From Schmidtea polychroa (lineage: Eukaryota): a stretch of DNA of 64,000 bases. Under the pieces are notes generated by a model. The model was not told the origin of the DNA, searched no databases, and worked only from the letters and a program-made list of their open reading frames with translations. Positions 8,629 to 56,377 of this stretch are shown piece after piece. A program made the position numbers and the translations under genes. Location of the stretch: NCBI GenBank assembly GCA_044892525.1, contig CM097885.1, positions 22,756,001 to 22,820,000 on the forward strand, in the 5' to 3' direction. The stretch's first letter is position 1. Each line of letters starts with the position of its first letter.

Positions 8629-8795
8629 TATAAAGTGATGATTTCTTGGTAGCAGCCTTTATTATTTAAAACAATAAAGTGATAATTTAAGGCTTTTGCT
8701 ACGAAAAATGTATTGCCAAGGATTATCTTATAGTCGAAATTTTTTTCATTAAATACATTATTCACAGCAAAAGGCTTAAATTATCACTTTATTGC
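8629..8795. repeat. Internally deleted fold-back copy of the MITE at 17496-18253
   Basis: Starts tataaagtgatgatttcttggtagcagc, like the 17496 element, and contains the inverted arm cttaaattatcactttattg. Confidence 0.7.
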
Positions 8796-8868
<73 letters not shown>

Positions 8869-17416: not shown

Positions 17417-17495
<79 letters not shown>

Positions 17496-17497
<2 letters not shown>

Positions 17498-18253
17498 TAA
17501 AGTGATGATTTCTTGGTAGCAGCATTTATTATTTAAAACAATAAAATGATAATTTAAGCCTTTTGCTGCAAATAATGTATTTAATGAAAAAATTTTCGAC
17601 TATAAGATAGGACTTGCCAATCTCCTTCTTTAACAATCTTCTTCCCGAAAATACATTTCTATCTTTCTTTTATTTCCTTTTTCTTAATTCTCATTGGTTA
17701 TAAATATAATATATACTTTCTTTTTATGAATTTTTTTATTAAAAATTTCATTTAAAATTCAAAATGACACAAATTAAAATTTTTTAAATTTATATAAAGC
17801 TTCTTGAATTAGCTTCTAGAAGCCTAATAAAATATTTCAAAATATTTTAAAATAAAGCTTCCAATAACTATTTATATACGCTATTTAAATATTTCAATAA
17901 ATGTGTCAATTTTGATTTTTAAATCCTATCTTTTGAAAGTATATTTCCTAAAATTTTCTATATTATTTTAATTATTAGTTTTTAATTTATTATATTCTTT
18001 ATATATTTTCAGTTATTCTCAAGGTCAATGACAACAGATCAAATTAAAAGTTTTTAAAAATTTAAAAATTAAAAAAAATTTAGTTAGAAATGCATTTTCG
18101 GGAAGAAGATTGCTAAATTCCAAGAGATTGAAAAGGACTATTTTAGAGTCGAAAATCTTTTCATTAAATACAATATTTTATCACTTATCACTTAAATTAT
18201 CACTTTATTGTTTTAAATAATAAATGCTGCTACCAAGATATCATCACTTTATA
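17496..18253. mobile_element. Fold-back MITE with long imperfect TIRs, embedded in (AAT)n
   Basis: tataaagtgatgatttcttggtagcagcatttattatttaaaacaataaa is inverted at 18193-18253; further internal inverted similarity. Confidence 0.8.
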
Positions 18254-18730: not shown

Positions 18731-19074
18731 GAAAACTCCCAAATATAACTCATACCTAGTGTTTCGACAAGTCAGGGGGGGAAGGACATTTACCTCTGAC
18801 TGGCAGTTTGTTTGTTGAATGTTCTCGCGTCTGTGTGCAGAATTATGGTAATATGGATGTGCGCACACAGACGCGAGCAATAGGTTTCTATTTTTTTTGC
18901 ATTGTGAGTTTAATATTAATTAGATTTAGAAAATTGAATTTAATTCTAGTAATTGATTGGTGTTCGAAAAGGTTTTAAACGGATATTTATGCGGAAATAT
19001 TGAATTCTAAGTTTTGTTGGGTTAAATGAATTGATTTGAACTCGATTGGAATTTTTTGTGATCTGGAGTGAAAT

Positions 19075-19683
19075 ATGGAAGATAATGAATGTTTGATATG
19101 TCGTATTTCAATGAGCAATATAGCGAAGGTAATATTTGAAAGTTGTAGACATGCGTTTTGTATCTGTTACGCGAAGAGATGTTTTTTCAGAAGTGAAACT
19201 TGTCCATGTGATTGTGGCTCAACAAGATCGTTGCAAATTATTAATGGAAGTTTATCAAAACGATTGGAAATCAACGATTTTATTTCTGTAAATCATGAAA
19301 TGACAGAAGAGGAACTCCAAGATATTTTTATGAAATTTCCCCAAAAACTTAAAAATATTCGTAAATTATCTGAAACCAATTATGACATTGTGGATAAAAA
19401 GATAAACTTGCTAACTTATGAATATGATATTCTATTTAATCGAGCTCTTAAAAAGATCAACACAACTCAAATGTTTATTAGCCAAAGTGTTGAACAATTA
19501 TCCAATGTTTCAAATTCAATCATGGCTCAATCTCAAGTTATTGGACACGTTAAATGGTTTAACAAACAATGGCTTTGCACAAATAAAGCGTGTGATGCGA
19601 TTAATTACAAAGAAACTCTTCTGATTTGTCTTAGACGAAAACAACTAGAAAAACTAATAATAATTGAATACGATATCAAGTGA
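19075..19683 (+). CDS. Intronless protein with N-terminal degenerate RING-like zinc finger and a coiled-coil-like region
   Basis: 202-aa ORF; CLIC-x13-CRHAFCIC...CPCDC pattern; unusually long ORF for this base composition. Confidence 0.6.
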   Translation: MEDNECLICRISMSNIAKVIFESCRHAFCICYAKRCFFRSETCPCDCGSTRSLQIINGSLSKRLEINDFISVNHEMTEEELQDIFMKFPQKLKNIRKLSETNYDIVDKKINLLTYEYDILFNRALKKINTTQMFISQSVEQLSNVSNSIMAQSQVIGHVKWFNKQWLCTNKACDAINYKETLLICLRRKQLEKLIIIEYDIK

Positions 19684-22289: not shown

Positions 22290-23150
22290 GTTAAAAAAAA
22301 AATCCTTCATTATCTAATTTTAATTTAAATTTATAATCTTCATGTTGTAATGGAAAAGACGTGGACGAACCCAAAAGACGAAGCAGGTTTTAGTGGAATC
22401 GAAAAGTTAAAGAAAAGAGTTCTGAATTCAAATGCAGAAACCCACGTACAGTTTGAAAAGCCGATGCTGAAAAGATTTCCAACAAGAGATTATAAAAATT
22501 TGGTATTGCTGATTTATGGCAAATGTATTTGATGGAAATGATACCATATTCAAAGATTAATAAATGATTCAAGTATATTTTGACATGTATTGATGTTTTC
22601 AGTCGTTTTTCTCGAGCAATTCCTACCAAAGCTAAGTCTGCCGAGAAAATATCCAAAGCAATTAAATTCATTATTTTTCTTTTGGAAAGGAATAAACTCA
22701 AAATCAATCATTACTCTGTGCTATCTCAATTCAAAGTCCCTTCAAAATGGCCACAAACAAGTCAATCGTTCTTGGAGTAAATGGTAAATTTATTTTTATT
22801 TTTATTACTTACTTTATTATCATTTAAAAACCTGTCAAGTTAATTCCGAGCAATTTCGAGGCACTTAAATTGATCATCAAGGAAATGGTAAATTTTATTA
22901 TTTTAATTAATTTTAATAATATTATTTTAGATCTTTTTATCGGAGATTGATACGATATCAAGGAGAATGAAGATCTCTTGGATATTTCTAGAATTTTCAA
23001 AAATGGTAAATTATTTTAATTTATTTATATTTTAAAATATGGATTTTTTAGATTTAATTAATCAAGACTTAAATTATGCCCTCACAACTAAGATGAACCC
23101 GAAGATTCTAATAAAAAAAGTGTCGAAAGGGCATCTGATAAATTATCAAC
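22290..23150 (+). mobile_element. Decayed, internally deleted Polinton fragment (integrase 5' part joined to the spliced acidic gene)
   Basis: MEKTWTNPKDEAGFSGIEKLKKRV and TCIDVFSRFSRAIP match the integrase at 45687; followed by exon D*YDIKENEDLLDI, homologous to DWYDVSENEELLDL at 41160. Confidence 0.85.
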
Positions 23151-32204: not shown

Positions 32205-33135
32205 TAATATACGTATGAAAACACCATAATTATAATGGGGTAATTAAAATAAATATTAAATTTGTTTATAATCAGTAATCGAATTTCTAAGAAGCTTAAA
32301 CAAAATTGAAATCAACTAGCAAAATAAATCAAATTTTATTAAACAATTTTTGTTCAAAAGAAATTATTCATGTCACCCACCATAAATATTTTAATTAATA
32401 AATAAGTTTGCATTTTTGTAATTAAATTTTCAGGAGTCTCAATATCAATTTAATGTTAATTTTTAAATTCTTATTCTCTAAATTGTTTTTTAAATATATT
32501 GAATTTTACATTTTTTTTAATTTTATTTATAATTTTGCACTCAAATTTTGATTTATTTTTGAATTTTTTGTTATATATATATTTTTTAATAATTGATTTG
32601 CCAGACAAGATTAATTATATAAAAATAATTGAATTATAAACTTTAATGATACTTATAAAATCAAAAGCCACAATAACCAGTTTCAGTAATCTCAATTCTC
32701 TTGTTCGGAAAGTGTTTCTTTAACCCAGATGTTGCCAAAACTATTTTATTCAAAAAAAAAACATAAAATTAGTAAAATCTTATTTAAAGTAGCTAAATAA
32801 AGTTATTTTACTTTGATTTTTTTTTATGATTTACGCTTTGGTCATGTGCTAATTGTGATGTGCTAAACACATTCTTATTATAGATATCTCTAAATAACTA
32901 GCGTATGCAAAAAAAAAATATATATAAGGAGCGTTCTTTTAAAAGGACGGTGGCAACATTTGGGTTAAGTTTACATTCCAATCTTTGTGATGTTTTGCAC
33001 TCACTTTTAATTTATTTATTATCAAAGTTTTCAAATGTGATTTATTTCCTTAAATTTCTTTGTTTATGAAGACATTACATTAATTAATAAAATAATAATA
33101 ATAATAATTATATAAAATTAATAATAATATTAATA

Positions 33136-33956
<821 letters not shown>

Positions 33957-34175
33957 GGATTTTAAGGATTATCTTCGATAGATTTTATTGAATAATGGTT
34001 CATTAAAAAGGTCTTGAAGAGCTCTATCCAATGGTTATATATTTGAAGATACCGCCGAAGGGGCTGGGCGGTAGTTTGAAAATTTGGTTTATTTTGAATA
34101 TTATTATTTGATACATAGTTTTATTATTTACAATATTCAAAGTATTAATAACAAAGGTAAAGAAATAAATGTTTA

Positions 34176-34733
34176 TTAAATGTATATAGTATGATACTCA
34201 TTAATATACATTGAACATGCTTTACATTTGCGAACATTTGAATCATGGCATTTAGAACATACAATTACATGTCCGCAAGGTAAAAACAAAACCGATACTT
34301 GATTTTCTTTACAAATGTAACAAGTTAAATACATTTTCCTACCATCATTGAGTTTTTTCCTTAGCTTATTTTCAATCAATTCGGATTTCGATATCCATTC
34401 ATAAATCAATCTACTACTATATCCTGGTTCCAGCCTTAAATCCATACAATTCCAAAAGCATTCATTCAATGAATCATTATCTACTATTGCTTTGTCTAAA
34501 TGCATCAAATAAATCGATAACTTCAAAATGCATTTATTGTAATTAAATAAATCAATCAAATATCCAATGGAGGAATGTTTGAAAATTTCTAAAATTTTTA
34601 TGGTTTCCTTTTCAGTGAAAGTATCATAATTGTTCATAAAATCTTCAACGGTGCAGTTTAAAAACTTGAATGATCTCGTGGTCATCAGTAATTTCTTAAT
34701 AAATTTATGAAAATACTTATATTCTGCACACAT
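34176..34733 (-). CDS. C-terminal IAP-type RING-HC protein (putative E3 ubiquitin ligase), Polinton cargo
   Basis: CYICKENQVSVLFLPCGHVIVCSKC...CKAC...IYI at the extreme C-terminus; no BIR motif visible. Confidence 0.85.
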   Translation of the reverse strand: MCAEYKYFHKFIKKLLMTTRSFKFLNCTVEDFMNNYDTFTEKETIKILEIFKHSSIGYLIDLFNYNKCILKLSIYLMHLDKAIVDNDSLNECFWNCMDLRLEPGYSSRLIYEWISKSELIENKLRKKLNDGRKMYLTCYICKENQVSVLFLPCGHVIVCSKCHDSNVRKCKACSMYINEYHTIYI

Positions 34734-35095
34734 TTATAAGAGATACATTAAAACAACTCATTTATTAAACAAGAAAATAATTTAAAATCAATAATGGTAA
34801 TTTTAAGGATTATCTTCGATAGATTTTATTGAATAATGGTTCATTAAAAAGGTCTTGAAGAGCTCTATCCAATGGTTATATATTTGAAGATATAATGTTT
34901 GTGCACAATATAGTAAGTATTATTATTTTTATTATTATTTTTATTAACAAACTACATTCTAATAAAATACTTTTACACATCAAATTATTAAAAAAAAAAT
35001 CAAAGAAATAAAACCGATAATTATAAAACGAAAAAGAGACTTTACAATAATTTCTATTTTACAAAAATTCAAACAAGTCCGATCACAGAATTAAA

Positions 35096-38000
35096 TTAAT
35101 CTTGTAGATGTTGATTGATGAGATCGGGATCTGCTCCTGATTGAATATCATTATCGTCATTATCAATGACATCAACCCCTAAATAATGACCATATGCAAA
35201 ACTAGAGTTTTTCTCTACCCAAGCTCTTTTATCATCATGATTAGTTAAAGCAATCTTTGAGTTTTTAAAGGTAAAAAGCTGATGATTTCGGGTTCCTATT
35301 CTAGTCTGAGGTACAGAAATAACTGTGTTGTTGTTGTAACAGTCTAAATAGGATTGATGTTTTATATCTGTACCTGGTAATTTTACGCCCTTAGCTCTCA
35401 TAGTAGATTTATTTCCTAAAAGACTGTAGCACTTTGGTCGCAAGAAAACCCACTCACTATATCCTACACCCTTACTCTCATCCTTAAACTTTCCTATAAC
35501 TGAGTCGAGTCTCCTAGAATATAAAGGATGAGAGGAATCATAATTTGAGGTGTCTAACAAGTCATCCGAAATCATCGCTGGCAAAAGAACGTCAAGCTTT
35601 ACATTTTTGACCTCTAAGAAGAAACTATCGGTATCACCCGCAACTATATTTATATCACAGTTAAACTGACTCCTATATTTTGCTAATTCTATGTACTGTA
35701 ATTGATACATCCTTAGTTTGGATAAATCCAGCACTGATTGTCCGATGTAGCTGGGTCTATCCAAACATATAGACTCCTTATTGAGATGTACACCAAAAAG
35801 ATCATCATCAATTTTGATGGTTTTTCTAAATGATGGTTTTGATGAATATGTAATTAATTTTTCCGCGGAATTACATAGTCGTAAATTTAATCTCTTCTTA
35901 AGGTTTTCAACGGATTTACCGTACAAGCTATTATTATACAATTTGAATAAATCTCTGTACAGTTCACTGCTTGCTTCAGCTCTTAGCTGTGTATTTTTAT
36001 TTATATAATTTTTAAAAATCGGTGCTTGCTTGAATTTTATAGCCCTATGGATGTGTACAACTTTGGCACCAAGAGACAAATAAAGCTTGAGAAGCCTCCA
36101 ATGAAGAACATGGTTCTTCTTTGGCCAATGCGTGAGCATCAACTTCTCAACTTTCGAACCAGGCGGGCACATTTTCTCAGGAGCAAGAGGAAAGTCATTT
36201 AAAAAATCATGAAAAATTTCTGGAATATCTATATCCACTTCTATGGTATAACCATAGGGAAGGATTTCAATGTCAGCATTCATGCACTCAAGCAATACAT
36301 CATTCAATTCATCATACACCCAAGTGAAATCAGCAAAAGGAAGATTTTGGCTAAGAGCCCAACCATACAGATTATTTATATCAATATATAATAATTCTGT
36401 ATTATCAGAAGCAGCAACGTAATGTTTGTTAACAAATGTTAACCCACCACGTATTCCTCCTTCGTAAAAATTGAACATTTCTATGTCCTGTAAAAGTTCT
36501 ATAGGCTCAGTTAATGTCATAAGCGCTGAGGCCCATGACATACCCGGAATACCATAAAAGTTTAGAGGTTCTAGACCATTGTATGCAATGGCCTTGGCAC
36601 GGAATTGTTGGAAATAGTCCGCAAGGAGGAATACATCCAATTTTTGATAAGTTAACATATAGTCAGCCAATTTAGTACAACGTTGTTGAGTCCAAATAAG
36701 TTGAGCCTTAGCATACTCATCTTCAGTAACACCAGACCAAATAGGAGGCAATTCATAAGTGGTTTCAAGTACATCCAAATCAGTCGCATAATCATAAGGA
36801 AATATGGCTTTAGCATCTATTATTAGCCTATCAAAAACCGACGAAGTCAAAGGAAGATCAGTTAGAGTTTTTACAGCCTTAGCCAAAGAACAATTAACAA
36901 ATTGTATGCTGTCGATAAAACGAACAGCTAATTTTTTAATGTGAACAATCATCGAGATAAATTTCTCTGTGCTTGTGGGTATTATATTCAAATTCCAAGA
37001 AGGAAAGCCATTGAGACCATATTTTAAAATATGGTGTAAGTCGTAGCCTCGTAAATTATGAAATACAATCGGCAGCTGTTTATAAATTCTGCGAGCCATA
37101 TTACATTTCCTACAGGCTGCACCGAGATAATTACCAGTAAAATGGTCATGATCTCGAACAGCAAGGGATAAAACCTTCTTGCAAAGATAGCAGTTCCTAC
37201 AAGATTTGAATTGTCGTTCCTCAGCAAAAGTCATAGGTCCTAACCGTTTTTTCCCTTCAAGCTCATAATAAGGTAGGACAATTGTGACAGCAATTTGCTC
37301 TACTTTTTTAAGAAATTGAGGTATACAATCAAGACCATAAAACTCGTAATACGATTTTCTATTGTTAAGATTATTTATTAATAAAAGACCTGCTGAAATA
37401 GGTAAATGTATTTGATGATGTTTAACATCTTTAGGTAAAACCGATTCAAAATCGGCATAAAAAACAAAGGGTGGGGTGATTCTCTTTGAATGATTTTGAA
37501 ACACTAAATATTTATTTTCGGGTAAAGTGTAAAGGGTTGTACCCGTTTGATTTTTACTGCATAGGGCCACATGTTTAGTGAAAGCATTGTCCATTCGAAA
37601 ACCGTTAAGACAATGTGGGCACCATTTGCATCTTATTTGAATACTACAGTCATTATTACGATGGCAGTTCATTAAACGTGTAATGTTGGTCACTGCGGTG
37701 TAATGATAATTATCCTTATTTTCCAAGAGTAATAAATAAATTGGAGTACCGCCAGTAACCGTTGATCTGTGAATTATACTTAAGTGGGGGTGTTTAAAAA
37801 CATAGTCATTAGGAACCTGATCATCATCAACTATCACAGTAGGGGTATAAGCCAGAACATTTATGGCGAGATTTAAGTCTAAATTTTTCTTTTCGAATTT
37901 AGGTATATTACACAATTTCATCGGACAATCCGTGACTTCATTGTAATTAAGAATATTTAAAAGATTTTCATATTTTGAAACTCTTTCAGGGTGGCTACCT

Positions 38001-39055
38001 ATTTCATCTTTTTTCAAGAGCGCGAGAATACTATATAGAAAACACTTATGATCCTTATTTTTAACATTTATAATTGCTCCTTTAGATTTCAAATCTGCAG
38101 GTGTACGAATGTAACTATGACCAGATAGGCGACAAATAGGAGCAAATTTAGTCAGAATGAAATCAATCTCTAAGATATTAATTACTCTCCAGCCACTACC
38201 TAAATAGGTAAACTTTTCAATTTTTTCGTTTAACTTATTAACCCCCTCAATTAAAAAGTTATCCGAAAAGATCTCGGCTTTATTTGAAAAGTAGTTGTCA
38301 CGGATTTCCCCATCTTTTTCAAATCTTATAAGAATAGCGAATTGAATTTTGACGCTACCCATGTTATTTATTTCAGATGTTAACTTTTCAGTGATCCTAT
38401 CCGTTATTATAATTTTAATTAATTGTGAATCGGCAATATCAAATCGAATAGTTCGAATGGCGCCATTTAAATTTGATTCTATTATCGGCTCAATCGCTAA
38501 AGATGATCCACCTATTTGATTTATAGTATTTATAGTATTATCATTATTTATATTTTCATTTATAGTATTTATAGTATTAATATTATCATTTATAATATCA
38601 TGATTTATAGTATATATAATATTATTACATTCGTCATCACTGAGTAGAATGACTTCATTTTTAATAATTTCGTCGTCACTGATCTCAATGACTTCAGTTT
38701 TTATAATTTTATTTTTAATTTTAGACACCCTATGTTCAGCAGGTCTTTTGTTAGATTTCTTTTTTGTGTTATTATTTAAAATATTTACAATTTCAATGTT
38801 ATTCTTATTTATTATTTTAAACAGTTCTTGTTTATTTGTTTTGAAAGAATTTAAGTGCTGAGAATGTTGACTATAAAATTCCTTATACCTTACACTCTGG
38901 GAAGTTTTGCATATGGGGCAAATAAAAAAGTTGATGCCATTAAAAGGTTGGCGATAATATTTCTTCATATTTTTGTGGCATATCAAACTATGTCCGATTG
39001 ACGATACACAGTATCGTGGGTAAAATGGACCTGATAAATTATAAATATATATCAA
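35096..39055 (-). CDS. polB: Protein-primed family B DNA polymerase (pPolB); 5' end uncertain and possibly spliced
   Basis: Exonuclease YADFES and FHNLRGYD; embedded endonuclease-VII-like CYLC..RDHDHFTG.Y.GAAC..CN; YIDINNLYG, KLYNNSLYGK, GDTDS, LRPKCY and KG motifs. Confidence 0.97.
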   Translation of the reverse strand: MIYIYNLSGPFYPRYCVSSIGHSLICHKNMKKYYRQPFNGINFFICPICKTSQSVRYKEFYSQHSQHLNSFKTNKQELFKIINKNNIEIVNILNNNTKKKSNKRPAEHRVSKIKNKIIKTEVIEISDDEIIKNEVILLSDDECNNIIYTINHDIINDNINTINTINENINNDNTINTINQIGGSSLAIEPIIESNLNGAIRTIRFDIADSQLIKIIITDRITEKLTSEINNMGSVKIQFAILIRFEKDGEIRDNYFSNKAEIFSDNFLIEGVNKLNEKIEKFTYLGSGWRVINILEIDFILTKFAPICRLSGHSYIRTPADLKSKGAIINVKNKDHKCFLYSILALLKKDEIGSHPERVSKYENLLNILNYNEVTDCPMKLCNIPKFEKKNLDLNLAINVLAYTPTVIVDDDQVPNDYVFKHPHLSIIHRSTVTGGTPIYLLLLENKDNYHYTAVTNITRLMNCHRNNDCSIQIRCKWCPHCLNGFRMDNAFTKHVALCSKNQTGTTLYTLPENKYLVFQNHSKRITPPFVFYADFESVLPKDVKHHQIHLPISAGLLLINNLNNRKSYYEFYGLDCIPQFLKKVEQIAVTIVLPYYELEGKKRLGPMTFAEERQFKSCRNCYLCKKVLSLAVRDHDHFTGNYLGAACRKCNMARRIYKQLPIVFHNLRGYDLHHILKYGLNGFPSWNLNIIPTSTEKFISMIVHIKKLAVRFIDSIQFVNCSLAKAVKTLTDLPLTSSVFDRLIIDAKAIFPYDYATDLDVLETTYELPPIWSGVTEDEYAKAQLIWTQQRCTKLADYMLTYQKLDVFLLADYFQQFRAKAIAYNGLEPLNFYGIPGMSWASALMTLTEPIELLQDIEMFNFYEGGIRGGLTFVNKHYVAASDNTELLYIDINNLYGWALSQNLPFADFTWVYDELNDVLLECMNADIEILPYGYTIEVDIDIPEIFHDFLNDFPLAPEKMCPPGSKVEKLMLTHWPKKNHVLHWRLLKLYLSLGAKVVHIHRAIKFKQAPIFKNYINKNTQLRAEASSELYRDLFKLYNNSLYGKSVENLKKRLNLRLCNSAEKLITYSSKPSFRKTIKIDDDLFGVHLNKESICLDRPSYIGQSVLDLSKLRMYQLQYIELAKYRSQFNCDINIVAGDTDSFFLEVKNVKLDVLLPAMISDDLLDTSNYDSSHPLYSRRLDSVIGKFKDESKGVGYSEWVFLRPKCYSLLGNKSTMRAKGVKLPGTDIKHQSYLDCYNNNTVISVPQTRIGTRNHQLFTFKNSKIALTNHDDKRAWVEKNSSFAYGHYLGVDVIDNDDNDIQSGADPDLINQHLQD

Positions 39056-39184
39056 ATATATTTATAAATTATTGAAAAAATATTAATCATAAAAAGTATA
39101 TTCATAATGTAATTTTATTGTAGAGTTATTGCAATGTTTTTATTCAATATTATTATCATGTATTTATTGATATTTATATGGGGC

Positions 39185-40630
<1,446 letters not shown>

Positions 40631-40845
40631 ATGATCAGAAGACAATAGTTGCATGCTGACTGCAAACTATATGACGATAGAAAAAAAAAATAGCATAAGT
40701 ATGTATATACTGTATATTTTATATACATACTTATATACATCATATACTGACATTATAGTATTAATATTTATTTATATACATTTAAAGCTTATAAAATAGA
40801 TTTAAAATAAACTTTATAAAAAATATACTTAAAAATAAATTAATA

Positions 40846-41256
40846 CTAACAAGTCTCCTCCAAATCTGTTTCCTCCCCAATAGAAACGGGGGCATTAATT
40901 TCTCTTTCCTCCTCAATAGAAACGGTGGCATCATTTTCTGTATCAATAATAATTTATTAAATAATTTAATAAATAAATAAATAAATTTACCTAAAACATC
41001 GTCCTCAATAATAATAATTGAAGCATCGTCATCATCTTCAATTGTTATTGGTTCTAAGACAATAATAATATTAATAACTCAAATTTAAAAAATTCACCGA
41101 AAATATGTTCCAAATCCAACAGTTCTTCATTTTCAGACACATCATACCAATCTAAATTATCTGAAAATAAATAATTAGAAATATTAATAATAATAATAAT
41201 AAATTACCATTGCTGTTCGTTAAGAGAGCACGTAAAATATTACTGGAATTGTTCAT
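40846..41256 (-). CDS. Four-exon acidic protein with SUMO-interacting-motif-like repeats (exons 41256-41208, 41160-41098, 41053-40991, 40937-40851/40846)
   Basis: Three GT-AG introns of 47, 44 and 53 nt, all phase 1, give an open frame MNNSSNILRALLTNSNDNLDWYDVSENEELLDLEHIFEPITIEDDDDASIIIIEDDVLENDATVSIEEE...; intron position conserved in the copy at 22888-22930. Confidence 0.75.
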
Positions 41257-41520
41257 CGAATTTTTGGATTTTGATTTTTCAGAGACAACTTTACGAACTT
41301 ATATAAATAATAAGTTTATATAAACCTGTAAAATTGACATTTTAAACAAATATTTATTCTAATTACTTGCGAATCCGGTCAGTCTTAGAATAAAGTACAA
41401 TTAAATTTATTATTATTATTACCATTACAATTACTATTAATCATGTACGGATCATGCACCGTGCATGACTGAATTTTTTAATATTCTAATAATATAAAAC
41501 ATATTTAAAAATAATAAAAC

Positions 41521-41551
<31 letters not shown>

Positions 41552-41621
41552 TAATAATAATAATAATAAAACATAATAATAATTATAAAATAATAAAAAC
41601 ACATTTTTATAAAAACATTTA

Positions 41622-42025
41622 TTATTTAATAGACATAAGCCATCCTAAACAATGTTGTCCGCACGTACGAGTTAAAGGGTGTTGATACATTGTTTTATTA
41701 TATACAATAGGTTTGCCCATCGTTTGTAGTTTCGAAACCAATAAAGCAGGATAATAGAAACCCATAGGATCGAATACATGTATCTTATCTGGTTTCATAT
41801 AGATTGCAATCCAATGCTCTCCGCCGAGATGAGATGAATGGGTATTGACGATTATGGCTTGATTATTTTTCAAAAATGGTATTTTATCGAGAGGAAAAAC
41901 TCCTAAAAATTCATTTCCTAATATTTGTTTTCCAATTCGATTAACCTGAACAGAACTATTTTAATAAATTAAACAGTATAAAAAACAACTTACTCCATGA
42001 CAACTTTCTGTATTTCTGTATACAT
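41622..42025 (-). CDS. Adenain-like cysteine maturation protease, spliced (intron 41993-41956)
   Basis: NT....GEHWIA, FDPMG and YQ.....TCGQHC catalytic motifs; removing a 38-nt gtaagt...tag intron joins ATG-GA to SVQVNRIG...FLGVFPLDKIP in frame. Confidence 0.9.
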
Positions 42026-43249
42026 TTATACCAGAACGGTTCTATTTGCAGTAATTTGAACTTCATTTTCAAATACTCCATATATTATAACATGCACAGG
42101 TTCTGTAATAGCTTTTGCAAACTTTATATCTAATCGTAAATTTCCATTTTGAGGTAATTGACTCTGATTCAAATCAAAATCTGGGGCCAAAACAAATGTA
42201 AAGAATGGATATTTGGATTTGAATTCTTCAAGAGTTATGCCGCAATTCAAATTTTTATCTAAATATCCCATATTTCTAACAATACTCTGCATATATGTAG
42301 CACAGTAATTGTCACTATCGAAATCTTGAGTATATGTTTCTCGATAATCAGTATTTTTCGACAAAGTTAGAGATGTAACACCAAAGGTTTTGAAAATTGA
42401 GCTGGAGGCACTATATGAACCATTATATTGTGCTTCACCTTGAAATGTTACCAGAATAAAGTTTGGCATTCTTCTATCTCCAAATATTTGTTCCTTATAG
42501 AAGGAAGAAGCACCTTTGGCTATTGCAAATGAAACAATTTCTTTTGTTTTCAGAGGATAGATTGCATGCTTAGAATTAAGACCCAACTGATGACCTGCTA
42601 ATACCGACGGATCAACTCGAACTCTTCTTACTAGTAATTTTGCATCAACTAATTGACATATTGGTTGACCAGCACCACTAGTTAATGATAAAGAAGAATC
42701 GGTTCTTTTCAGTCTAATGTGTACATTGACTCCTGGAAGTAAATATTTTGGTTGATCCATAAAATCGAGTTGTAATGATGAACACATGGTGAAAATCTTT
42801 GAGCCTTTAATCCATTTTTTCCGTTCGTCATCACTTGCTGCAAAACCCATAGGAGTAAGACATGTATTTTTGGTGTCGGTATTATAATTTAAAATAGTTT
42901 CTATTATCGCCTTGTGGATATATGTATTGTTGCCACCTTCAATCTTGATATTATTAAATCCAAGAATAGCATCTTTAAAAAGTGTATGAAACAAAAAAAT
43001 ATTAGGTATTGTAGCATCAGCATCACCCAAAGCCTTTTTATCTTTATCTATAACCTTGATTTGAACAGTCAATAAAGTATCATTCAAATCTAAATATTCT
43101 GTTTGAGAACCATTGATGTAAAATTCTACATCATTTCTACTATCGGTAATTGAATTCATAGGAAAAACTTCCTCAAATGCCCCAAATTCTATTACAGCCT
43201 GGGGCGATGGTCTATCAAATATGCATAATTCAGATTTACCACAAATCAT
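42026..43249 (-). CDS. Major capsid protein (double jelly-roll, Polinton PY)
   Basis: 407 aa; KSEL.IF..P..Q N-terminus, YLDLNDT.L, LF....L..N, QPKYLLPGV...I.L, GNLRLDIKF. Confidence 0.92.
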   Translation of the reverse strand: MICGKSELCIFDRPSPQAVIEFGAFEEVFPMNSITDSRNDVEFYINGSQTEYLDLNDTLLTVQIKVIDKDKKALGDADATIPNIFLFHTLFKDAILGFNNIKIEGGNNTYIHKAIIETILNYNTDTKNTCLTPMGFAASDDERKKWIKGSKIFTMCSSLQLDFMDQPKYLLPGVNVHIRLKRTDSSLSLTSGAGQPICQLVDAKLLVRRVRVDPSVLAGHQLGLNSKHAIYPLKTKEIVSFAIAKGASSFYKEQIFGDRRMPNFILVTFQGEAQYNGSYSASSSIFKTFGVTSLTLSKNTDYRETYTQDFDSDNYCATYMQSIVRNMGYLDKNLNCGITLEEFKSKYPFFTFVLAPDFDLNQSQLPQNGNLRLDIKFAKAITEPVHVIIYGVFENEVQITANRTVLV

Positions 43250-43614
43250 TTTGCAAATATAGTTCCATGTCCTTTCATTCGTTTGTTTATACGTGATATT
43301 CCATGTCTTTTACGTTTTGGAGCTGGAGCTGGAGCTGGAGGTTTTTCTTTTTGAAACATACCTGCAACCCCGGGTAAAACTTTCCCTAATTCAGCTAAAG
43401 CATTTGATTTTAGAGATGGTAATATTTTCTGTTCATTCATAATAACATCTTTTGCAGTTTTCATACCAAAACTACCAATACGTTTAAGAATAGGCAATGC
43501 AAATCTACCAATTGTTCTCAACCATCCCGATCCGTACTGTTTACCAATAAAATATGGTAATTCACCGCCAGATTGGCTATCACTATACATACTAATAATA
43601 TCAGAATTAGCCAT
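43246..43614 (-). CDS. Small virion core/membrane-active-like protein with Q-x-G-x-G motifs and a basic tail
   Basis: QSGG...QYGSGWLRTIGRFALPILKRIG amphipathic segment; typical position between penton and MCP; ATGA overlap with MCP start. Confidence 0.7.
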   Translation of the reverse strand: MANSDIISMYSDSQSGGELPYFIGKQYGSGWLRTIGRFALPILKRIGSFGMKTAKDVIMNEQKILPSLKSNALAELGKVLPGVAGMFQKEKPPAPAPAPKRKRHGISRINKRMKGHGTIFAK

Positions 43615-44674
43615 CTACTTTACGAAAATGTAATGTCAAATGAGTTTTTGAACCTTTTGGAAAGTTTATAAGTTTTCCACTATCATCACGAATATTTATT
43701 TCTATATTGTTTATACATGAACTTGCTATTGGTAAATACATGGGATTATCGATATTTATATTGACAACTTCATCATGTTCATATTTTCCAATCCATACCG
43801 ATTTCAAAAGAGGAACACTGGAATCATCAACAATAATGGGTTCCATAATGTTAGTATATATGAACATTTGTTGATGATGTTCTAGTATTCTTGGTTTGCG
43901 TATACCAGTCGATTTTTCTCTATATTTTTGCTTATCTAATCCAAGTGAATTTGCCAAATTTTTATCAAATGTAACTTCGCAAATATCCTCATTCAAACTG
44001 AAGGTAAACATCAAATCTTTCACAATTTCCAAATTTTTAAATATGTGTGAACAATTGAACTTTAAATATTTAAGTAATACATCAAGTTTATCAAAATATA
44101 ATTCATCAGCAAAGGTGAATGATTCTTCAACTTCATCATTATACGACACAGATATTTTTATTTCTTCTTTCACTATACTGTTTGCTTCAAATAGATTAAA
44201 ACGTAATAAATACTCGGTCTCCATAACAATATTTTTCAGCTTATTGCAACCCATTCGTTTGGCATCTTCAATAGTTTCGAATGTTATTGTAAATGGTTTA
44301 AAATCACAACTGATATTTAATCCATCCTTGTAAAATATATAGCAATGCGAATCTAATATTTGGTTCGGAATATGATATGTTTTATCATAATTACTAATAA
44401 TAAAGATACCGCTACATGTTTTCACAATATTCCTTTTGAAATCAATCTTACATTGACTATAAAATGGGAATGTGTTGTACACGAATGTAAAATCTTGCAG
44501 TGCAACTTCCCAGTCACCATTTAGAGAAATCGGATTCTGGAGATTGACCATAAATTTACTGGCTTGATTGTCTGGATGAATTAATGGGCAACTATTGCTC
44601 GGTAAAATAGTATAAAAATTCACTTTACTAGGTCCTTTGCTGATATCCATGACGGGTTTTGATAACCATGCCAT
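43607..44674 (-). CDS. Minor capsid protein (penton, Polinton PX); start uncertain
   Basis: FY.ILPSNS.....PDN..SKF.V.L..PI.L.GDWEVAL; FIYTNI.EP.IV.D..VPLL; PMYLP...IEINIRD..G..I.F; LHFRK. Confidence 0.92.
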   Translation of the reverse strand: MAWLSKPVMDISKGPSKVNFYTILPSNSCPLIHPDNQASKFMVNLQNPISLNGDWEVALQDFTFVYNTFPFYSQCKIDFKRNIVKTCSGIFIISNYDKTYHIPNQILDSHCYIFYKDGLNISCDFKPFTITFETIEDAKRMGCNKLKNIVMETEYLLRFNLFEANSIVKEEIKISVSYNDEVEESFTFADELYFDKLDVLLKYLKFNCSHIFKNLEIVKDLMFTFSLNEDICEVTFDKNLANSLGLDKQKYREKSTGIRKPRILEHHQQMFIYTNIMEPIIVDDSSVPLLKSVWIGKYEHDEVVNINIDNPMYLPIASSCINNIEINIRDDSGKLINFPKGSKTHLTLHFRKVDG

Positions 44675-45249
44675 TTGACATAGTATTGTTTATCCTTGCC
44701 GACCTTTTTAGTTTTCAATATTTTTTGAATTCTAAATACCTTTGGAGGAGGAATGACTTGTAATTCCTGCTCATAAAATTTCCCTTGTACAATATTATTA
44801 TCACTGTCTTTGATGACATACATTACAGGATTCTGTTTAGTATTTATTTTTGAAATTACAAAGACTTCATCACTCCAATTTGTATCAAAATTTTTAATAA
44901 ATGGTGATGCACTAATTTTACTAATTCTAACACGATCACCGACTTTATATTTAGGTTTTGCAATTTTTACAGATTTCTTAGAATAGAATGTTTTTGATGT
45001 AATATCAACCGGTCTCAATCCATTCAGTCCTCGATGTGATGAATGATTATAACTTGTTATTATTTTCGGTAAAGCATTTACCCATTTTTTATTACCTTGA
45101 TGCACGAATAATTTCTTTAATCTATCTCTCAGTGTTCGATTAAATCTTTCAACATGGGCAGCTTTGTATTGAGAATGTACCGAGTAGTGATTTATTTTCA
45201 GTTTATCGAGGATTTGCTTAACTTTGTTATTGTAGAATTCTTTACCTAA

Positions 45250-45299
<50 letters not shown>

Positions 45300-45687
45300 C
45301 CAAATCTGTTTGCAAGTTATTAGGATGTCAATCTTTAAATAAAATATTAATTGCCTTTGACATTTCATCTGCAGATTTTGCCTTGACTGGTATTGCTCGT
45401 GCAAACCTGCTGAATACATTAATACATGTTAAAATATATTTATTCCCATTGTTAATTTTCGAATACGGTATCATCTCCATCAAATCCATTTGCCATAAAT
45501 CGTCAATACCAAATGTTTTATAGGCTCTTGTTGGAAATCTTTTCCGCATTGGTTTGTTCAAACTGTACGCAAGCTGATCTGTTAACCACTTCTGGGTTTC
45601 TTTTTTCGAATTCGGAACTCTTTTCTTTAATTTTGCCACTCCACCGAAACCGGCTTCGTCTTCTGGGTTCGTCCAAATCTTCTCCAT
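44620..45687 (-). CDS. Retroviral-type (DDE) integrase with C-terminal chromodomain-like region; in-frame TGA at 45330-45328 and a 54-nt intron at 45299-45246
   Basis: LWQMDL, YILTCINVFSRFA, QTDLG|KEF, KAAHVERFNRTLR, NWSDEVF, YYVKWHGY..PSWI; both ORFs are in the same frame. Confidence 0.93.
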
Positions 45688-45745
45688 TACAGCAAGAAGA
45701 TTTAAAATTAAAATTTAAATTAGGTAATGAAGGATTAGCACCCAT
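45518..45745 (-). CDS. Small ORF overprinting the integrase 5' end, with an N-myristoylation-type start
   Basis: MGANPS (MGxxxS) followed by SSCC; ATG three bases after the previous stop; peptide recognisable in the decayed copy at ~22300-22390. Confidence 0.45.
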   Translation of the reverse strand: MGANPSLPNLNFNFKSSCCNGEDLDEPRRRSRFRWSGKIKEKSSEFEKRNPEVVNRSACVQFEQTNAEKISNKSL

Positions 45746-45748
45746 TGT

Positions 45749-46282
45749 TTATGATTGATTTCCTACAACTCCACCTAATAATGATAATGCCAGAGGTATC
45801 AATGCACCAATAAATCCACCTTGTTGTTTATATATAATTTTCCTCATTTGCTTACGATTTTTATTATTTACTAATGATAACAAAGGTTTCCTATGTTTGC
45901 TCAATAAATGCTTTTTTGATTTACTGATTTTAATTTTGCCTTTGACTACTTTAAGTATAATATTGAGTAAATCATCGACAACAAAATTTGGGAATGATTG
46001 CAATATATTCATTCTTTTCATACTCGGGGCCTTTAACAATGCATTAAAAAATGGAAAACTGCGATGATTTTTAATTACTTTTTTACCGGCTTTACGGGTT
46101 TTACGGGTTTCACGTTTAGGTTTAGGATTTTTCGAAATAAGATTCATTGCAGAGAAATTTTCAGTTACAAGTTTTTTAGATGGTGTATAACTAGTTGTTG
46201 GTGGAACCTTTGGAACTTTAATACTCTTTTTAATACTTTTTCTTAATTTCCTAATATTTTTCACCCTTGCTTTTAGAAACAT
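45749..46282 (-). CDS. Basic virion core-like protein with C-terminal QxGGF..L hydrophobic tail
   Basis: K/R-rich 177 aa ending YKQQGGFIGALIPLALSLLGG, a pattern typical of Polinton genes between ATPase and integrase. Confidence 0.75.
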   Translation of the reverse strand: MFLKARVKNIRKLRKSIKKSIKVPKVPPTTSYTPSKKLVTENFSAMNLISKNPKPKRETRKTRKAGKKVIKNHRSFPFFNALLKAPSMKRMNILQSFPNFVVDDLLNIILKVVKGKIKISKSKKHLLSKHRKPLLSLVNNKNRKQMRKIIYKQQGGFIGALIPLALSLLGGVVGNQS

Positions 46283-46300
46283 TATTATTCATAGAGGTTT

Positions 46301-46927
46301 TCAACTTTGTTTATAAACCATGGCACCTTTTGGGTTGAAAATATCTGTTTTTACTCGTAAATCATCGGGACATTGTTGTGTGAAATCAAGAAATATATAT
46401 CCATGAGGTATTTTTGTAGCATCTTGAAATGCACTGATAAGAAAATTACGATTGTTAGGGTATGCTTGACGTGCAAGAAAATCAATCACTGTTGCATCTC
46501 TAGGATTCTTAAAAATAACTAAATATTGTACATTTAAATTACGTGTTCGATGTGCACCACCTTGATGAAATAGATTTTGAGTTATAAAAATAACAGTTAC
46601 ACCAACGTGTCTACTGATTTTAGTAAATAAATTATTGAAATTCTTTTCTTTATTAGCTTCTTGATACAAGTCATCAATAATTATGACATCCCCCTTCTTT
46701 AGTCTACTGGACCAATTTTTATCAAATCCCTCTACTATTTTCATATTTTTCAATTTACAGAAACTTGATTGAGTCAATCCGTGTTCTTGATCAGCACCTC
46801 GATGCCAATAAATTTTGTTGAATTTTGATTCAAATAAATGTGATTTTAGTAATTTGCAAACAAACAAAGTTTTGCCGCTACCACTTGGTCCAACTATTTG
46901 ATATACAGCATCATTTCTTAGTTCCAT
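46301..46927 (-). CDS. A32/FtsK-like DNA packaging ATPase
   Basis: Walker A GPSGSGKT, Walker B IIIDDL, SRH..VTVIFITQNLF, R...LN.QYLVIFKNPRD. Confidence 0.96.
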   Translation of the reverse strand: MELRNDAVYQIVGPSGSGKTLFVCKLLKSHLFESKFNKIYWHRGADQEHGLTQSSFCKLKNMKIVEGFDKNWSSRLKKGDVIIIDDLYQEANKEKNFNNLFTKISRHVGVTVIFITQNLFHQGGAHRTRNLNVQYLVIFKNPRDATVIDFLARQAYPNNRNFLISAFQDATKIPHGYIFLDFTQQCPDDLRVKTDIFNPKGAMVYKQS

Positions 46928-47042
46928 TTTTAATATTTATTTAAAAATTAATTTTGTTTATATCGTAAAGAATAAATTGATTTAATTACTCTATAATATA
47001 ATATATATATATATACTTGATTTTTATAAATATTCAGTAGAA

Positions 47043-47555
47043 ATGTTGACAAATATTAATTATAGAGGTCGTGTGTCTTTGGAAACTGTTGGTATGATGA
47101 ATTTCCCCAAGTGTAAACCACAACAATATGTCGACAAAACTGGAAAATATACTATTATATTTTTCAAAAATGGTAAATGTCGTATAATGGGTTGTAAGAA
47201 GCCTATCGAATTCAAGAATTTGCAATATAATATCAAAGATATTCAAGTTCAAAGTCTTACTATAGCTACCAAGGTTGAACAATCTATTAATTTGAATAAT
47301 TTAGCAAAGTTATTAGATGGAGATTGTATATATGAGCCTGAATTATTTCCCGCTCTGCGTTATACAAAATATAATCCACTATGTGTAAATATATTTTCGA
47401 GTGGTAAAATAGTTGTACTAGGTATTAAAAATTTAGATTTTCATACTATTGTTGAAGGAATTATAAACGATGTAAAGGATTTGATTGGATCTTTAACAAT
47501 TTCTTCAAATATAAGTAATGAGGATTTGCTTGAATATTTATTCAACAATGATTGA
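47043..47555 (+). CDS. TATA-box-binding protein (TBP)-like protein encoded by the Polinton
   Basis: IFFKNGKCRIMGCK (repeat 1) and INLNNLA...YEPELFPALRY...VNIFSSGKIVVLG.K (repeat 2) match the TBP core. Confidence 0.88.
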   Translation: MLTNINYRGRVSLETVGMMNFPKCKPQQYVDKTGKYTIIFFKNGKCRIMGCKKPIEFKNLQYNIKDIQVQSLTIATKVEQSINLNNLAKLLDGDCIYEPELFPALRYTKYNPLCVNIFSSGKIVVLGIKNLDFHTIVEGIINDVKDLIGSLTISSNISNEDLLEYLFNND

Positions 47556-47916
47556 ACATGAAGGTAACTGTTTTTATTTTAAATTTACTGATTTTTGTTT
47601 AGAAACTATACTAAAAATTTTGATTGATAAAATTGAAGATTTTTATCCGAATTTGAACAATTCCTTAATGTATTGTGCTCCAGAAGTTGTGTTTTACAAA
47701 ATTTATGAAATAACTGGAATAAATGTAATAGATTTAATTCATATGGATCATGCTACGATTACATGTTATACCGATGATGTTGAAAATTGTGATTTTTGTA
47801 AAAATAATATGCAGAATACTTGTGGGGATGATAGTTGTACATGTTTTGTAAATCTACAGAAACGAGAAATAATTCATGCATTACTTGTGAAATTGCGAAA
47901 AAATGTATTGTTGTAA
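47548..47916 (+). CDS. Cys-rich hypothetical protein overlapping the TBP-like stop
   Basis: ATG at 47548 (or 47518); C-x7-CxxC-x7-C-x4-CxC cluster. Confidence 0.65.
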   Translation: MIEHEGNCFYFKFTDFCLETILKILIDKIEDFYPNLNNSLMYCAPEVVFYKIYEITGINVIDLIHMDHATITCYTDDVENCDFCKNNMQNTCGDDSCTCFVNLQKREIIHALLVKLRKNVLL

Positions 47917-48118
47917 TAAAATATAATTATATTTGTTTTGTGATAACCTTAACTAACCTATAATATTTCTTTGTGTACAATAAATCATTTCAAACTTTGT
48001 TATTTAGCATAAAATGAACTAGTTGATCACGTTTTGATCATGCCTGTCACTTGAAACTTGTTTACAATGAAATTAGTATAAAATATCTGGTTCAAATTAT
48101 TAAATATTATAACTACAA

Positions 48119-48707
48119 ATGGATAATCAAATTACAGGTTTGTTGTCGTTTACACATATTCCATTTATTAGTTTTTTAATCTAGGAGTTTTGAAGAGAAA
48201 AAATGCAGATGCCGCTCAGGAATTCGGAAAACGGAAATTTAAAGAAGCGACATTATCCTCGGAAACCTTGGTCAATGTTCGAGTGGATACAAAAAAGCCA
48301 GTCGAATTCATGCAATACAAACTAAATTATTTGTATTGTCCAATTTCCTATACATTTAAGGTAAGTTTCTATAAATTATTTTGGATTTTATTATTATTAT
48401 TTATTGTTAGGAACCAGTAACTCTGGAAAAATGTTTCTACAATGTGAGACTTTCCAAAATCAAGTTTCATGACAAGATGCTATTGGGACAATTATTTCAG
48501 AGGATCAATGAAAATATTGAATTTGATGAAGATATGTTCATTAGAAACGATTTGGATATGATTCCCAATGGTGGTAAGATGAGCAAAATAACCTGCATGG
48601 TTACCATATTAATTCAAGGGTATAATGTAAGCAGAGACCGAATCAAACCAATTTGGAAAATTATAAAAGCCGAAGATAAGTTTGAAGAGGAACATTGTTC
48701 ATGTTAA
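48119..48707 (+). CDS. Three-exon hypothetical protein (48119-48137, 48185-48360, 48411-48707)
   Basis: 47- and 50-nt GT-AG introns join ORFs 48190 and 48444 in frame behind an ATG; TATAAAA at 48077-48083. Confidence 0.8.
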
Positions 48708-48779
48708 ATTTATTTAATACATCTTTATTAGTGTTTTGGTGTTTTTAAATCATTGAAAATAACTAAAGTTTCAAATTTA

Positions 48780-49164
48780 TTAATCTTCAATACAATCTCT
48801 TTTCATTATATTTTCAACAATATGATCAATACAATTAGTAGAAACAATAGATTCATCTTCTTTAGATTCATTTGGTAATTTATCTGTTGTAGAATTCTCA
48901 ATACATGACTTAAGTTCTTCACTAGGCAAATCAGTATATTCATCTTCTTGCTGGGAAATATTTTCAGATTCATATGACATATCATCTTCATTAATTTCAT
49001 CGTCTGAATACGGCCATTTTAATTTCTCTGGAACATTCATAAATTCTCTAATTTTTACATTAGATATTTCCTCTAATTTTTCAATCAAAAAGTTGATTAT
49101 ATATGCTAAATAAAAAAAAAAGAATTAATAAACATAAAATTCATATTTTACCTTTTTCCGACAT
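48780..49164 (-). CDS. Two-exon acidic hypothetical protein (49164-49152, 49105-48780)
   Basis: ATG TCG GAA AAA G|gtaaaa...tttag|CA TAT: a 46-nt intron supplies the missing ATG in frame. Confidence 0.75.
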
Positions 49165-49683
49165 GGTTGAAAATAATTAAAATGAAAAAATAATTATGTT
49201 TATACTATTATTCAAAGCAACAAGATGATCGATAGATAGATTATAAGAAAATTAGATATTTCAACACGATACATATAATAAAAAGACAAGCAAACTTGCA
49301 ATGATATTTAACCTTTCAGTTTTTACATTTTTTTTTTAATATTTATTTCAATTATTTCGACAACACAAAAAGTGCCAATTTTTTTTTTACTAATTAATTT
49401 TCAGCCTAACCTACAACTTTTCACAAAAATCCAAAAAAAAAAATGAGACCTTTTTAATGAACCATTATTCAATATAATCTATCGAAGGTAATCCTTAAAA
49501 TTCCAAATTTAAAATGTTCGCAAATGTAAAGCATGTTCAATGTATATTAATGAGTATCATAATATAAACATTTATTTCTTTACCTTTGTTATTAATACTT
49601 TGAATATTGTAAATAATAAAACTATGTATCAAATAATAATATTCAAAATAAACCAAATTTACAAACTACCGCCCAGCCCCTTC

Positions 49684-49758
49684 GGGGCGGGCGGCGGGCA
49701 GCGGGCGGCGGGCGGCTGGCGGCGGGCGGCGGGCGAGCGGGCGGTGGGCGGGCGGCGG
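49684..49758 (+). repeat. G-rich (GGGCGGC)n-like tract
   Basis: Direct reading; more than four GGG runs in an otherwise very AT-rich window. Confidence 0.9.
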
Positions 49759-49806
49759 TTGTGTATGTCGATGATTTTAATTTTTATTAAATGCATTTGT
49801 TTGATT

Positions 49807-49857
49807 TCAGAATTCGATTTGTGTGACTAACCTTGTTAAATTTGAGTTGATGTAAAT

Positions 49858-49924
<67 letters not shown>

Positions 49925-50216
49925 TTAATAATAATAAAGTAATTTCTTATGAAGATTTATATTAAAGTGATTCAAAGCTGATTTATGAAATTGGTTGAAC
50001 CTTTTAAATGTAATTATCCAACAATAAATATTTAATGTAATAATGATCAAATTCACTTAACAAGGCAGTGCCGACAATTTGTGAGAGTCGACAAACATCG
50101 ATATATTACTGATTTATAATCTTCAAAGTCTCTTTTCAATTCAATGGATATTATAATCAGTGGTGAAATTGGAAGAAATAAAAGTTCTTATAATAATAGT
50201 AATTATTTGTAAAAAT

Positions 50217-50276
<60 letters not shown>

Positions 50277-50568
50277 GGAAAAATACTGAATTATTATTGA
50301 TTAAAATATTTGAAGGGATAACATGTGGTATGAAATTATGCGTTAATAATCGATTACATCAACGGAAATTCACATGATTTGCACTATGAACTGTTACTAA
50401 ATCATGTGTGAATGATATCAGTAAATGATATCAGACCTTAAAAAAAAAAATTTGACCTTGACCTTAAAAAATTTGACCTTGACCTTAAAAATTTGACCTT
50501 GACCTTAAAAATTAGACCTTGACCTGTCCTGGATGTGACATGTCCTGGAGGTGACACATCTTACTACT
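49807..50568 (-). repeat. Right terminal inverted repeat of the Polinton
   Basis: Reverse complement of 33136-33956. Confidence 0.95.
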
Positions 50569-51543
50569 TTAATATTATAAAAAATCAACATTAAAAACAT
50601 GATTTTTGAAAATCCCGATATTTCACTCTTTATTTCACTCAAAATTAAAATTTCAATATGCGTTCTCAATGCTATGAAATATTTATTATTACTAAAAATC
50701 ACTATTTTTGTGTGACCAAACGAAACCCTCAATTATGTGATCATGATAATGTTATTATATATTTATATAACATATATTGTAAGTTATAATTACATTATCT
50801 CTTTAATTCGAATACATAAGACTTTGTATTGAAATATGGAAATAACACTAGATTTGACATCAATATTTTTTAAATTAATCCAATGTCCGTGATTGGCCTC
50901 ACAAAATTTGCTTGGCACATACAAACATACAAATATTGGCGAAGTTAATATAGAAAGAGTAAAAATAATAATAATTACAATTATTTATTAAAAAATTGAC
51001 TAAATAAATTGACTAATAATTTATTTAAAATTGAATACTTCCGACACAGCTTTTTCAAATGATTTTGAATGCAATAATAAAAATATAAAAATTAAATTAA
51101 GCAAATTAAAAACCAAAATTAAGAAGAAACATAACATTGATTAAAACAAAAAATTTCGGACAACCTTAAAATGAAGTATGAGGTTACACTGGGTGGAATT
51201 ACGTTCTCGTATTTTGTTTTACACAACATTTTGGTAAAAATTTGAATAGAATAATTCAAAATATCAGTTGGGAAAAGGTGATTATATTATCTTGCAAAGA
51301 GCAATATTTTAATTTATACATATCCTTACGTTAGTCGACACTCCCCAGAGTAATAGGACAACCCTACACTAATTATTTTATTGTCAAACATGAAATATGT
51401 AAAAATTATTTGTAATCTTTTAACTTCTCTTTATAAATGTGCCAAAAAAACTAAAAGACCCATTATTCTCAATTATTCTTTATTTTAGTCCAATTAAAAT
51501 ATAAATAAATGACATAAAAATTAATTTATTATTACTGGCTTAC

Positions 51544-55439: not shown

Positions 55440-56186
55440 TTTAATAATATTAATAATATTCCCATGCATAGCCCTTTGAACGACCTTTAAAATGAGCTAT
55501 CATTCAATGGTCGGGAACTCACAAAAAATTTCATTTTGAAAATATGACCTTAAAAAATAAAATGACCTTGAAAAATAATAATAATATTCCCTTGCGACAT
55601 ATTAAGTGTGACCAGTACCCTTGTGAGCAATACCCATAGAGGGGCAAAATATCTTGTCGGATAATCTCAGAGTATACCTTTTGTTTGATATACATATTAT
55701 AAGGTTTGAAAAATTCTAAAGTTTTTAACCCTTTGGAGGTTCACCAAAAGGCTTCGAGAGTATACTCACCTCTCAAATACCTTTCGAATGAACCATCGTT
55801 CAATAAAATTCATTGGCGGGAACTCTGAAAATTTAAATTTTAAAAACATGACCTTGAAAAATTAATAATATTTTGAAAAATAATAATATGACCTTGAAAA
55901 AAATGCTGGTCATCAATTGTTAATATCCTTAAAAGGACTAATGATAATAATGATATCTATTGCTCATTGAAAAGGTCTTGCACTGGGCGTAAAATGATCC
56001 ATCGGTCAATACAATCGATTGATAGAAACACTAACTTTTGGGGTGCCAAAAAATAAGTCTCCGCCAGCACAAAGACAATTAAAAAAAATTTATTGACCTT
56101 GACATTAAAAATTTGGACCTTGACCTTTAAAAAGACCTTGAAAAAATTTTTTGGCAGTATCACTGTCCTGGAGGTGACATATCTAC
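55440..56186. mobile_element. Solo Polinton-like terminus or non-autonomous derivative
   Basis: Multiple tgaccttga motifs, ending ctgtcctggaggtgacatatctac, similar to the Polinton end tgtcctggaggtgacacatcttactact. Confidence 0.65.
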
Positions 56187-56377
56187 CTTAAGGCTTAAAC
56201 AAATAAAAATCTTACTTTTAATATTTCATTTTTTTAACCTGAAATCGGTACTATTGATTTCATTTTCATTTACAGTGATTTGTTCTTCCATTTACATTTT
56301 CATTAAGTTTGTTTCCATTGAATTTCCGGTTATGCTGTTTATAAAATCTAAAAGATATTAATAAATTTAATCAATAA

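Follow-up and report, generated by a model that had tools for sequence, protein, structure and literature searches.

The integrase gene of a full-length Maverick element in the window, the 64,000-nucleotide stretch of Schmidtea polychroa DNA analysed here, is interrupted by a 54-nt tract that consists of GT, (ATT)16 and TTAG and has a GC content of 4%. We put at roughly two in three the probability that this tract is a spliceosomal intron of the short class predicted in the host (45 to 60 nt), which would have been gained in a lineage-specific manner and filled with (ATT)n later. The original prediction had already called the tract an intron; the support that we can add is indirect, in that the break is shared with sister copies and relatives, the length and ends match those of host and element introns, and the variation downstream of the tract is mostly silent.

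The tract lies on the minus strand (45299-45246) and reads as a predicted phase-1 intron with donor GTATTA and acceptor TTTAG. Its repeat (45250..45297) comprises 16 perfect ATT units, which confirms the GT..AG microsatellite insert as first described. It separates an upstream exon (45300..45687, minus), which contains the start codon and the first and second catalytic Asp, from a downstream exon (44620..45245, minus) with the catalytic Glu and the chromodomain. The gene product matches the rve domain, under the curated cutoff when the insert is read through, as well as the chromo domain, and the D-D-E triad is present. The insert falls two codons past the second catalytic Asp. Its placement beside this motif was borne out both by the D-x-G-x-E spacing, which is free of any insert in 120/120 integrase homologues among the matches listed, and by alignment of the motif with LQTDNG of a solved retroviral integrase. 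Retention of the tract adds 18 residues in frame, 16 Ile and 2 others, in agreement with the mostly Ile insertion that had been claimed.

In a register test of the 54-nt cut, GT..AG ends were obtained in 1 of 17 registers. Among the 30 runs of at least five ATT units in the window, GT lies directly 5' in 3 and AG within 6 nt 3' in 4, and the integrase tract is the single run with both splice ends; this count of 1/30, which covers the window only, also served as an introner-type check. The proto-splice context that had been reported held as an observation, since G|GT is present (GG|GT in the window copy), and weakened as evidence for an intron, because the Gly codon at the site imposes G|G in 33/33 intron-less loci. 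AG|GT is found in just 9/33 of these loci.

The original reading of the integrase had overlooked an in-frame TGA (45328..45330, minus) located ten codons 5' of the tract, at a position where P0123 and P0126, the sister proteins, stay open. Full-length integrase is predicted not to be made from the window copy, and the copy to be dead, because no alternative splice skips the TGA without loss of the catalytic Asp; an alternative intron removing the stop was rejected on this ground. As a consequence of the upstream TGA, splicing of the tract would be irrelevant in that copy.

P0123 and P0126 were the only same-family proteins found; they form one 90% cluster and are 93-98% identical over the shared part. 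Neither has the upstream stop, and both leave the motif at the tract codon. After the motif, P0123 jumps to the C-terminal end of the integrase, which is most simply read as a deletion. P0126 continues into an impure Ile-rich tail (INIIIFII); no match was obtained between this tail and either shifted frame of the downstream exon, and P0126 may be a chimera or a deletion. No uninterrupted protein at more than 72% identity was present among the matches listed, though intron-blind gene callers would favour such proteins. Three relatives at 74-75% identity end at the same place: P0139 and P0162, which come from two sources, terminate in LG-KIII-stop and P0140 in LG-N-stop. These ends fit G|GTAA donors, the putative introns of P0126, P0139, P0162 and P0140 being read from peptide ends. 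Among the 21 early-ending matches at least 60% identical to P0001, 6 stop at residues 129-131, in about four independent groups; one of the six, P0143, is probably a contig end. P0143 and P0156, which end at or just past the motif and have no tail, were dropped as likely contig ends because P0143 is sister to the uninterrupted P0007, and P0042 and P0080 were false flags of the motif pattern. The best 150 representatives at 50% identity gave no clear further case, their ends being scattered and several of them chimera-like.

The site was also surveyed in metagenome loci. Of 37 loci, 31 have an uninterrupted motif, 4 stop before the site and 2 are distant full-length relatives; where the tract site is covered, the motif is thus uninterrupted in 31/31, and relative to such intron-less relatives the interrupted gene has lost no exonic residue. 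Six further loci comprise L038 and L039, both uninterrupted, three distant ones, and L040 (1-1009), whose related integrase stops matching immediately past the second catalytic Asp, where unrelated DNA of 740 nt or more takes over. This DNA is more GC-rich and begins with TG, possibly reflecting a retroelement insertion or a chimeric contig. Some breaks at the tract site are therefore not short introns, and L040 and P0123 together suggest that the site may be prone to breaks. A motif pattern search of viral contigs and metagenome contigs returned 0 matches, and protein-based scans of viral contigs found no relative. Since most homologues and loci are uninterrupted, the integrase interruption is, on this distribution, derived and confined to some lineages. 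The two breaking groups separate in quick trees (127 columns), and as between one and two intron gains a single origin is neither shown nor rejected (p-AU 0.42). A degraded second Maverick integrase fragment in the window (22300-22740, plus), about 80% identical, is without the region around the tract.

Variation among copies was classified from a comparison with contigs of runs X1, X4, X11 and X16, none recorded as RNA, over positions outside 45240-45307; from the best 40 rows by support, which are followed by 232 further rows, 34 variants were entered and 33 classified. The downstream exon has 8 silent and 2 replacement variants (P=0.0005 against 75% replacement expected), a silent excess that is compatible with a translated downstream exon, with the proviso that the variants may predate the tract insert. 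The integrase upstream of the tract has 3 silent and 4 replacement variants, without a silent excess (P=0.23). The corresponding counts are 6 and 1 in the next gene, and 1 and 7 in the ORF at 45749-46288. In addition, a contig of X16, a run guessed to be RNA, shows 38 unaligned letters beside 45308, the number expected if the contig continues into the tract and is cut off where the first repeat word common to other loci appears. This contig fits an unspliced form; it is indirect evidence that a further sample carries the tract, and not that the tract is removed. A depth dip beside the tract, which is expected with or without splicing, was not used.

Judging from gene structure, the window Maverick probably uses introns. 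The adenain-like protease gene has a predicted 38-nt phase-2 intron (41956..41993, minus; GTAAGT..AG) after its fifth coding base, and the intron position is common to four of five related loci (L004, L008, L012 and L013), where it measures 37-39 nt with an uncertain acceptor in L012 and L013. The interiors of these five predicted introns are unrelated, those of the four related loci contain in-frame stops, and L024, the most distant related locus, has no protease intron. We regard this shared position as the clearest sign of host splicing in the window Maverick group. The integrases of L004, L008, L012 and L013 are uninterrupted despite the same-position protease intron. Upstream of the polymerase, four predicted mini-exons of 49, 63, 63 and 87 nt (40851..41256, minus) likely encode a polymerase leader. 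The predicted introns between them are 47, 44 and 53 nt long, phase 1 and GT..AG, and an 1820-nt predicted phase-1 GT..AG intron joins the leader to the polymerase ORF, so that the reading frame stays open across all four phase-1 junctions in succession. A short-intron filter gave 4 sites on the coding strand against 1 on the opposite strand, having been set post hoc and thus not forming an independent test. Within this leader region (39031-41256, minus), the 1820-nt intron is rich in AAT/ATT runs and contains inverted repeats (39187-39396 and 39605-39814).

For the host, we examined the multi-exon SID-1 gene (dsRNA channel; 4195-31420, minus), which has predicted introns of 45-60 nt and very long ones. 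Lying in the flank of the Maverick, this gene indicates a host of animal type, with an AT-rich genome; one SID-1 exon had no match in the Atlas. Its predicted short introns measure 45, 46 and 60 nt, in a set that leaves out one 25-nt candidate and two mis-anchored flank candidates. The 54-nt tract falls within the span of 37-60 nt covered by the predicted short introns of host and element.

The integrase gene belongs to a full-length Maverick of about 17.4 kb (33136-50568). Its terminal inverted repeats (TIRs; left, 33136..34176, plus; right, 49564..50568, minus) are about 1 kb long, have AGTAGT ends and are 99.3% identical, right against left, over 716 nt; they are flanked by the target duplication TTAATA (33130-33135 and 50569-50574). 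The element encodes an open protein-primed family B DNA polymerase (pPolB) ORF (35096..39061, minus; PF03175, E 6.6e-24), in which sequence patterns located what we take to be the exonuclease and polymerase motifs. It further encodes the adenain-like protease (main exon 41622..41955, minus; PF00770) and an A32-like packaging ATPase with Walker A and B motifs (46301..46936, minus; PF04665). The ORF at 42026..43243 (minus) has no Pfam match and is likely the major capsid protein, a call made from its Atlas neighbours only (0.98; PF21738, DJR-like, on 30% of one neighbouring cluster), and the gene presumed to encode the minor capsid protein was labelled by position. TIRs with a 6-bp target duplication, pPolB, DDE integrase, ATPase, adenain protease and a capsid-like ORF are thus all found, as in Maverick/Polinton elements. 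Intronless core genes, a described Maverick trait and not part of the definition, are not: protease, polymerase leader and integrase have predicted introns. The family is high-copy, given that 29,246 contigs of run X1 align to 2 kb of it. Other features include a TBP-like protein (46986-47555, plus; PF00352, E 3e-17) that is present in L008 and L009 too, and a RING-finger ORF (34176-34733, minus) whose 3' end is repeated within the TIR at the other element end (49513-49640). GACCTT-rich repeats at 55500-56200 resemble the TIR repeats (family D15) and are perhaps the remnant end of another element. Elsewhere in the window, an ORF at 19072-19683 (plus) weakly matches nudivirus polyhedrin (PF24177, E 1e-5, under the cutoff) and may be part of an endogenous virus.

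The splicing signals of the tract are atypical. A T-R-A-Y branch-like motif is absent from it and present in 9/10 comparison introns. Its donor also stands apart in having T at +4, a position occupied by A in all ten of the others. The looser U-n-A branch core occurs in each ATT repeat unit of the tract. The missing motif and atypical donor would be expected if the tract were an unspliced microsatellite insertion common to the whole family, with GT..AG ends arising by chance and a dead integrase whose elements are mobilised in trans by other Maverick families. The same explanation would accommodate residue 89, which is Asn in the window family and Asp in 120/120 homologues among the matches listed. 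It is further favoured by the stop carried by a young insertion, as dated by near-identical TIRs and an intact target duplication; broken copies therefore either get inserted or decay fast. We nevertheless consider this explanation unlikely, since both splice ends occur in only one of the 30 ATT runs of the window, silent changes are in excess in the downstream exon, relatives end at the same codon with starts that are not ATT, and the Maverick has other predicted introns.

A pure GT-(ATT)n-TTAG intron might be spliced without T-R-A-Y, and its weak, length-variable signals might act on Maverick integration as a brake that is tuned by slippage or specific to tissues, a proposal that we rate as quite improbable. 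We are very doubtful of a related proposal, in which the intron is regulated, retention in most cells yielding an inactive poly-Ile integrase and germ-line or induced splicing permitting integration, as for the third intron of the P element. The weak donor, the lack of T-R-A-Y, the in-frame outcome of retention, the unspliced-looking X16 contig and the P-element precedent (in the portion of PMC7776569 available) all speak for such regulation. However, retention ends in a stop in the relatives, so the in-frame outcome is not conserved, and the X16 run may be DNA. Finally, that the tract reflects decay confined to one dead copy, or a misassembly of it, is extremely improbable and largely refuted: the upstream stop, the window bases that depart from most other copies at several sites in the contig comparison, and the ATT runs throughout the window would suit it, but the sister proteins without the stop leave the motif at the tract codon too, which also disposes of a copy-specific inactivating insertion, the case that had been named as fatal to the original prediction, and no uninterrupted near-identical protein is among the matches listed.

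Regarding the origin of a host-class intron at this site, birth from a microsatellite and takeover by one had both been offered, and the distribution of ATT in non-coding DNA favours takeover. ATT/AAT runs of at least four units are absent from the 9537 coding bases of the Maverick, take up 1023 of its 7896 remaining bases and cover 435 of 46567 bases of the window outside it, and one polymerase-leader intron contains five ATT/AAT units. Takeover of an existing AT-rich intron would be the best fit because the tail of P0126 starts impurely, the relatives begin with Lys or Asn codons, and ATT is non-coding. The Gly codon that follows the catalytic Asp may be where the intron was gained, perhaps through a short duplication or staggered-break repair, which we propose because a short sequence recurs across both junctions (GATTTGG|GTA at the 5' side and ATTTTAG|GTA at the 3' side). 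The repeat is not proof of mechanism, since it would also arise wherever a TTTAG acceptor precedes a Gly codon. In working copies the host spliceosome would routinely remove the intron, and the most common microsatellite of the genome could then overwrite its unconstrained interior. An unspliced message would stay in frame as long as slippage proceeds 3 nt at a time, but an enzyme with 18 residues inserted next to the catalytic Asp would probably be inactive. A repeat family beside ATT runs (8617-8714 and 17484-17581) was examined as a source of the tract, with no link found. This short repeat family (8617-8797 and 17484-17600) has inverted-repeat-like ends, adjoins ATT/AAT runs and is possibly a microsatellite-targeting MITE.

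If the tract is an intron, a Maverick lineage would depend on splicing by the host to integrate, mature its capsid and replicate, and intron-blind screens would score working Maverick copies as broken. A GT-(ATT)n-TTAG intron in a high-copy family would also provide a natural test of the minimal sequence and length tolerance of short introns. Were the switch-like regulation true, it would be a second case like the P element. As far as the available text of PMC7776569 goes, P-element IVS3 resembles the tract as an intron in a mobilising enzyme whose retention would abolish activity. It differs in that its regulation was shown experimentally, with an exonic silencer, piRNA control and a truncated repressor made on retention.

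The remaining comparisons likewise draw on the accessible portions of the sources cited. Introns in integrase-type enzymes are known from Ginger1 transposases, with 1-4 in some families (PMC2836005). New introns produced by tandem AGGT duplication or double-strand-break repair (PMC3443670, PMC4202315) resemble the tract in that their AT-rich interiors lie between junctions marked by a short direct repeat; a single pure-triplet interior, as in the tract, is not described in the consulted parts of these three sources. In the open-access literature, as far as it was accessible, we came across neither a described intron in the integrase of an animal Maverick nor a pure-triplet intron, and the accessible parts of PMC10748475, PMC8502044, PMC12220804, PMC11296320 and 10.1101/2024.03.25.586562 contain nothing on spliceosomal introns in core genes. 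Dinoflagellate introner-bearing Maverick/Polinton-like proviruses (PMC11957031) resemble the window element in combining introns with full length and retained integrase and capsid genes; those introns are copies of intron-generating transposons, whereas the tract contains only GT, (ATT)n and TTAG. Intact vertebrate Mavericks are reported without introns (PMC8097293, citing Kapitonov and Jurka 2006), and Genewise "introns" were treated there as insertions marking decay. Nematode Mavericks are described with intronless core genes and introns in cargo genes only (10.1101/2022.07.12.499685). The closest known system is the adintovirus-type animal Maverick/Polinton (PMC8097293, PMC10748475, 10.1101/2022.07.12.499685), with which the window element shares its size of about 17.4 kb, long TIRs, 6-bp target duplication, pPolB, rve and chromo integrase, ATPase, adenain-like protease and capsid-like ORF. 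In contrast to the vertebrate and nematode Mavericks just mentioned, the window element has predicted short introns in its integrase, protease and polymerase leader.
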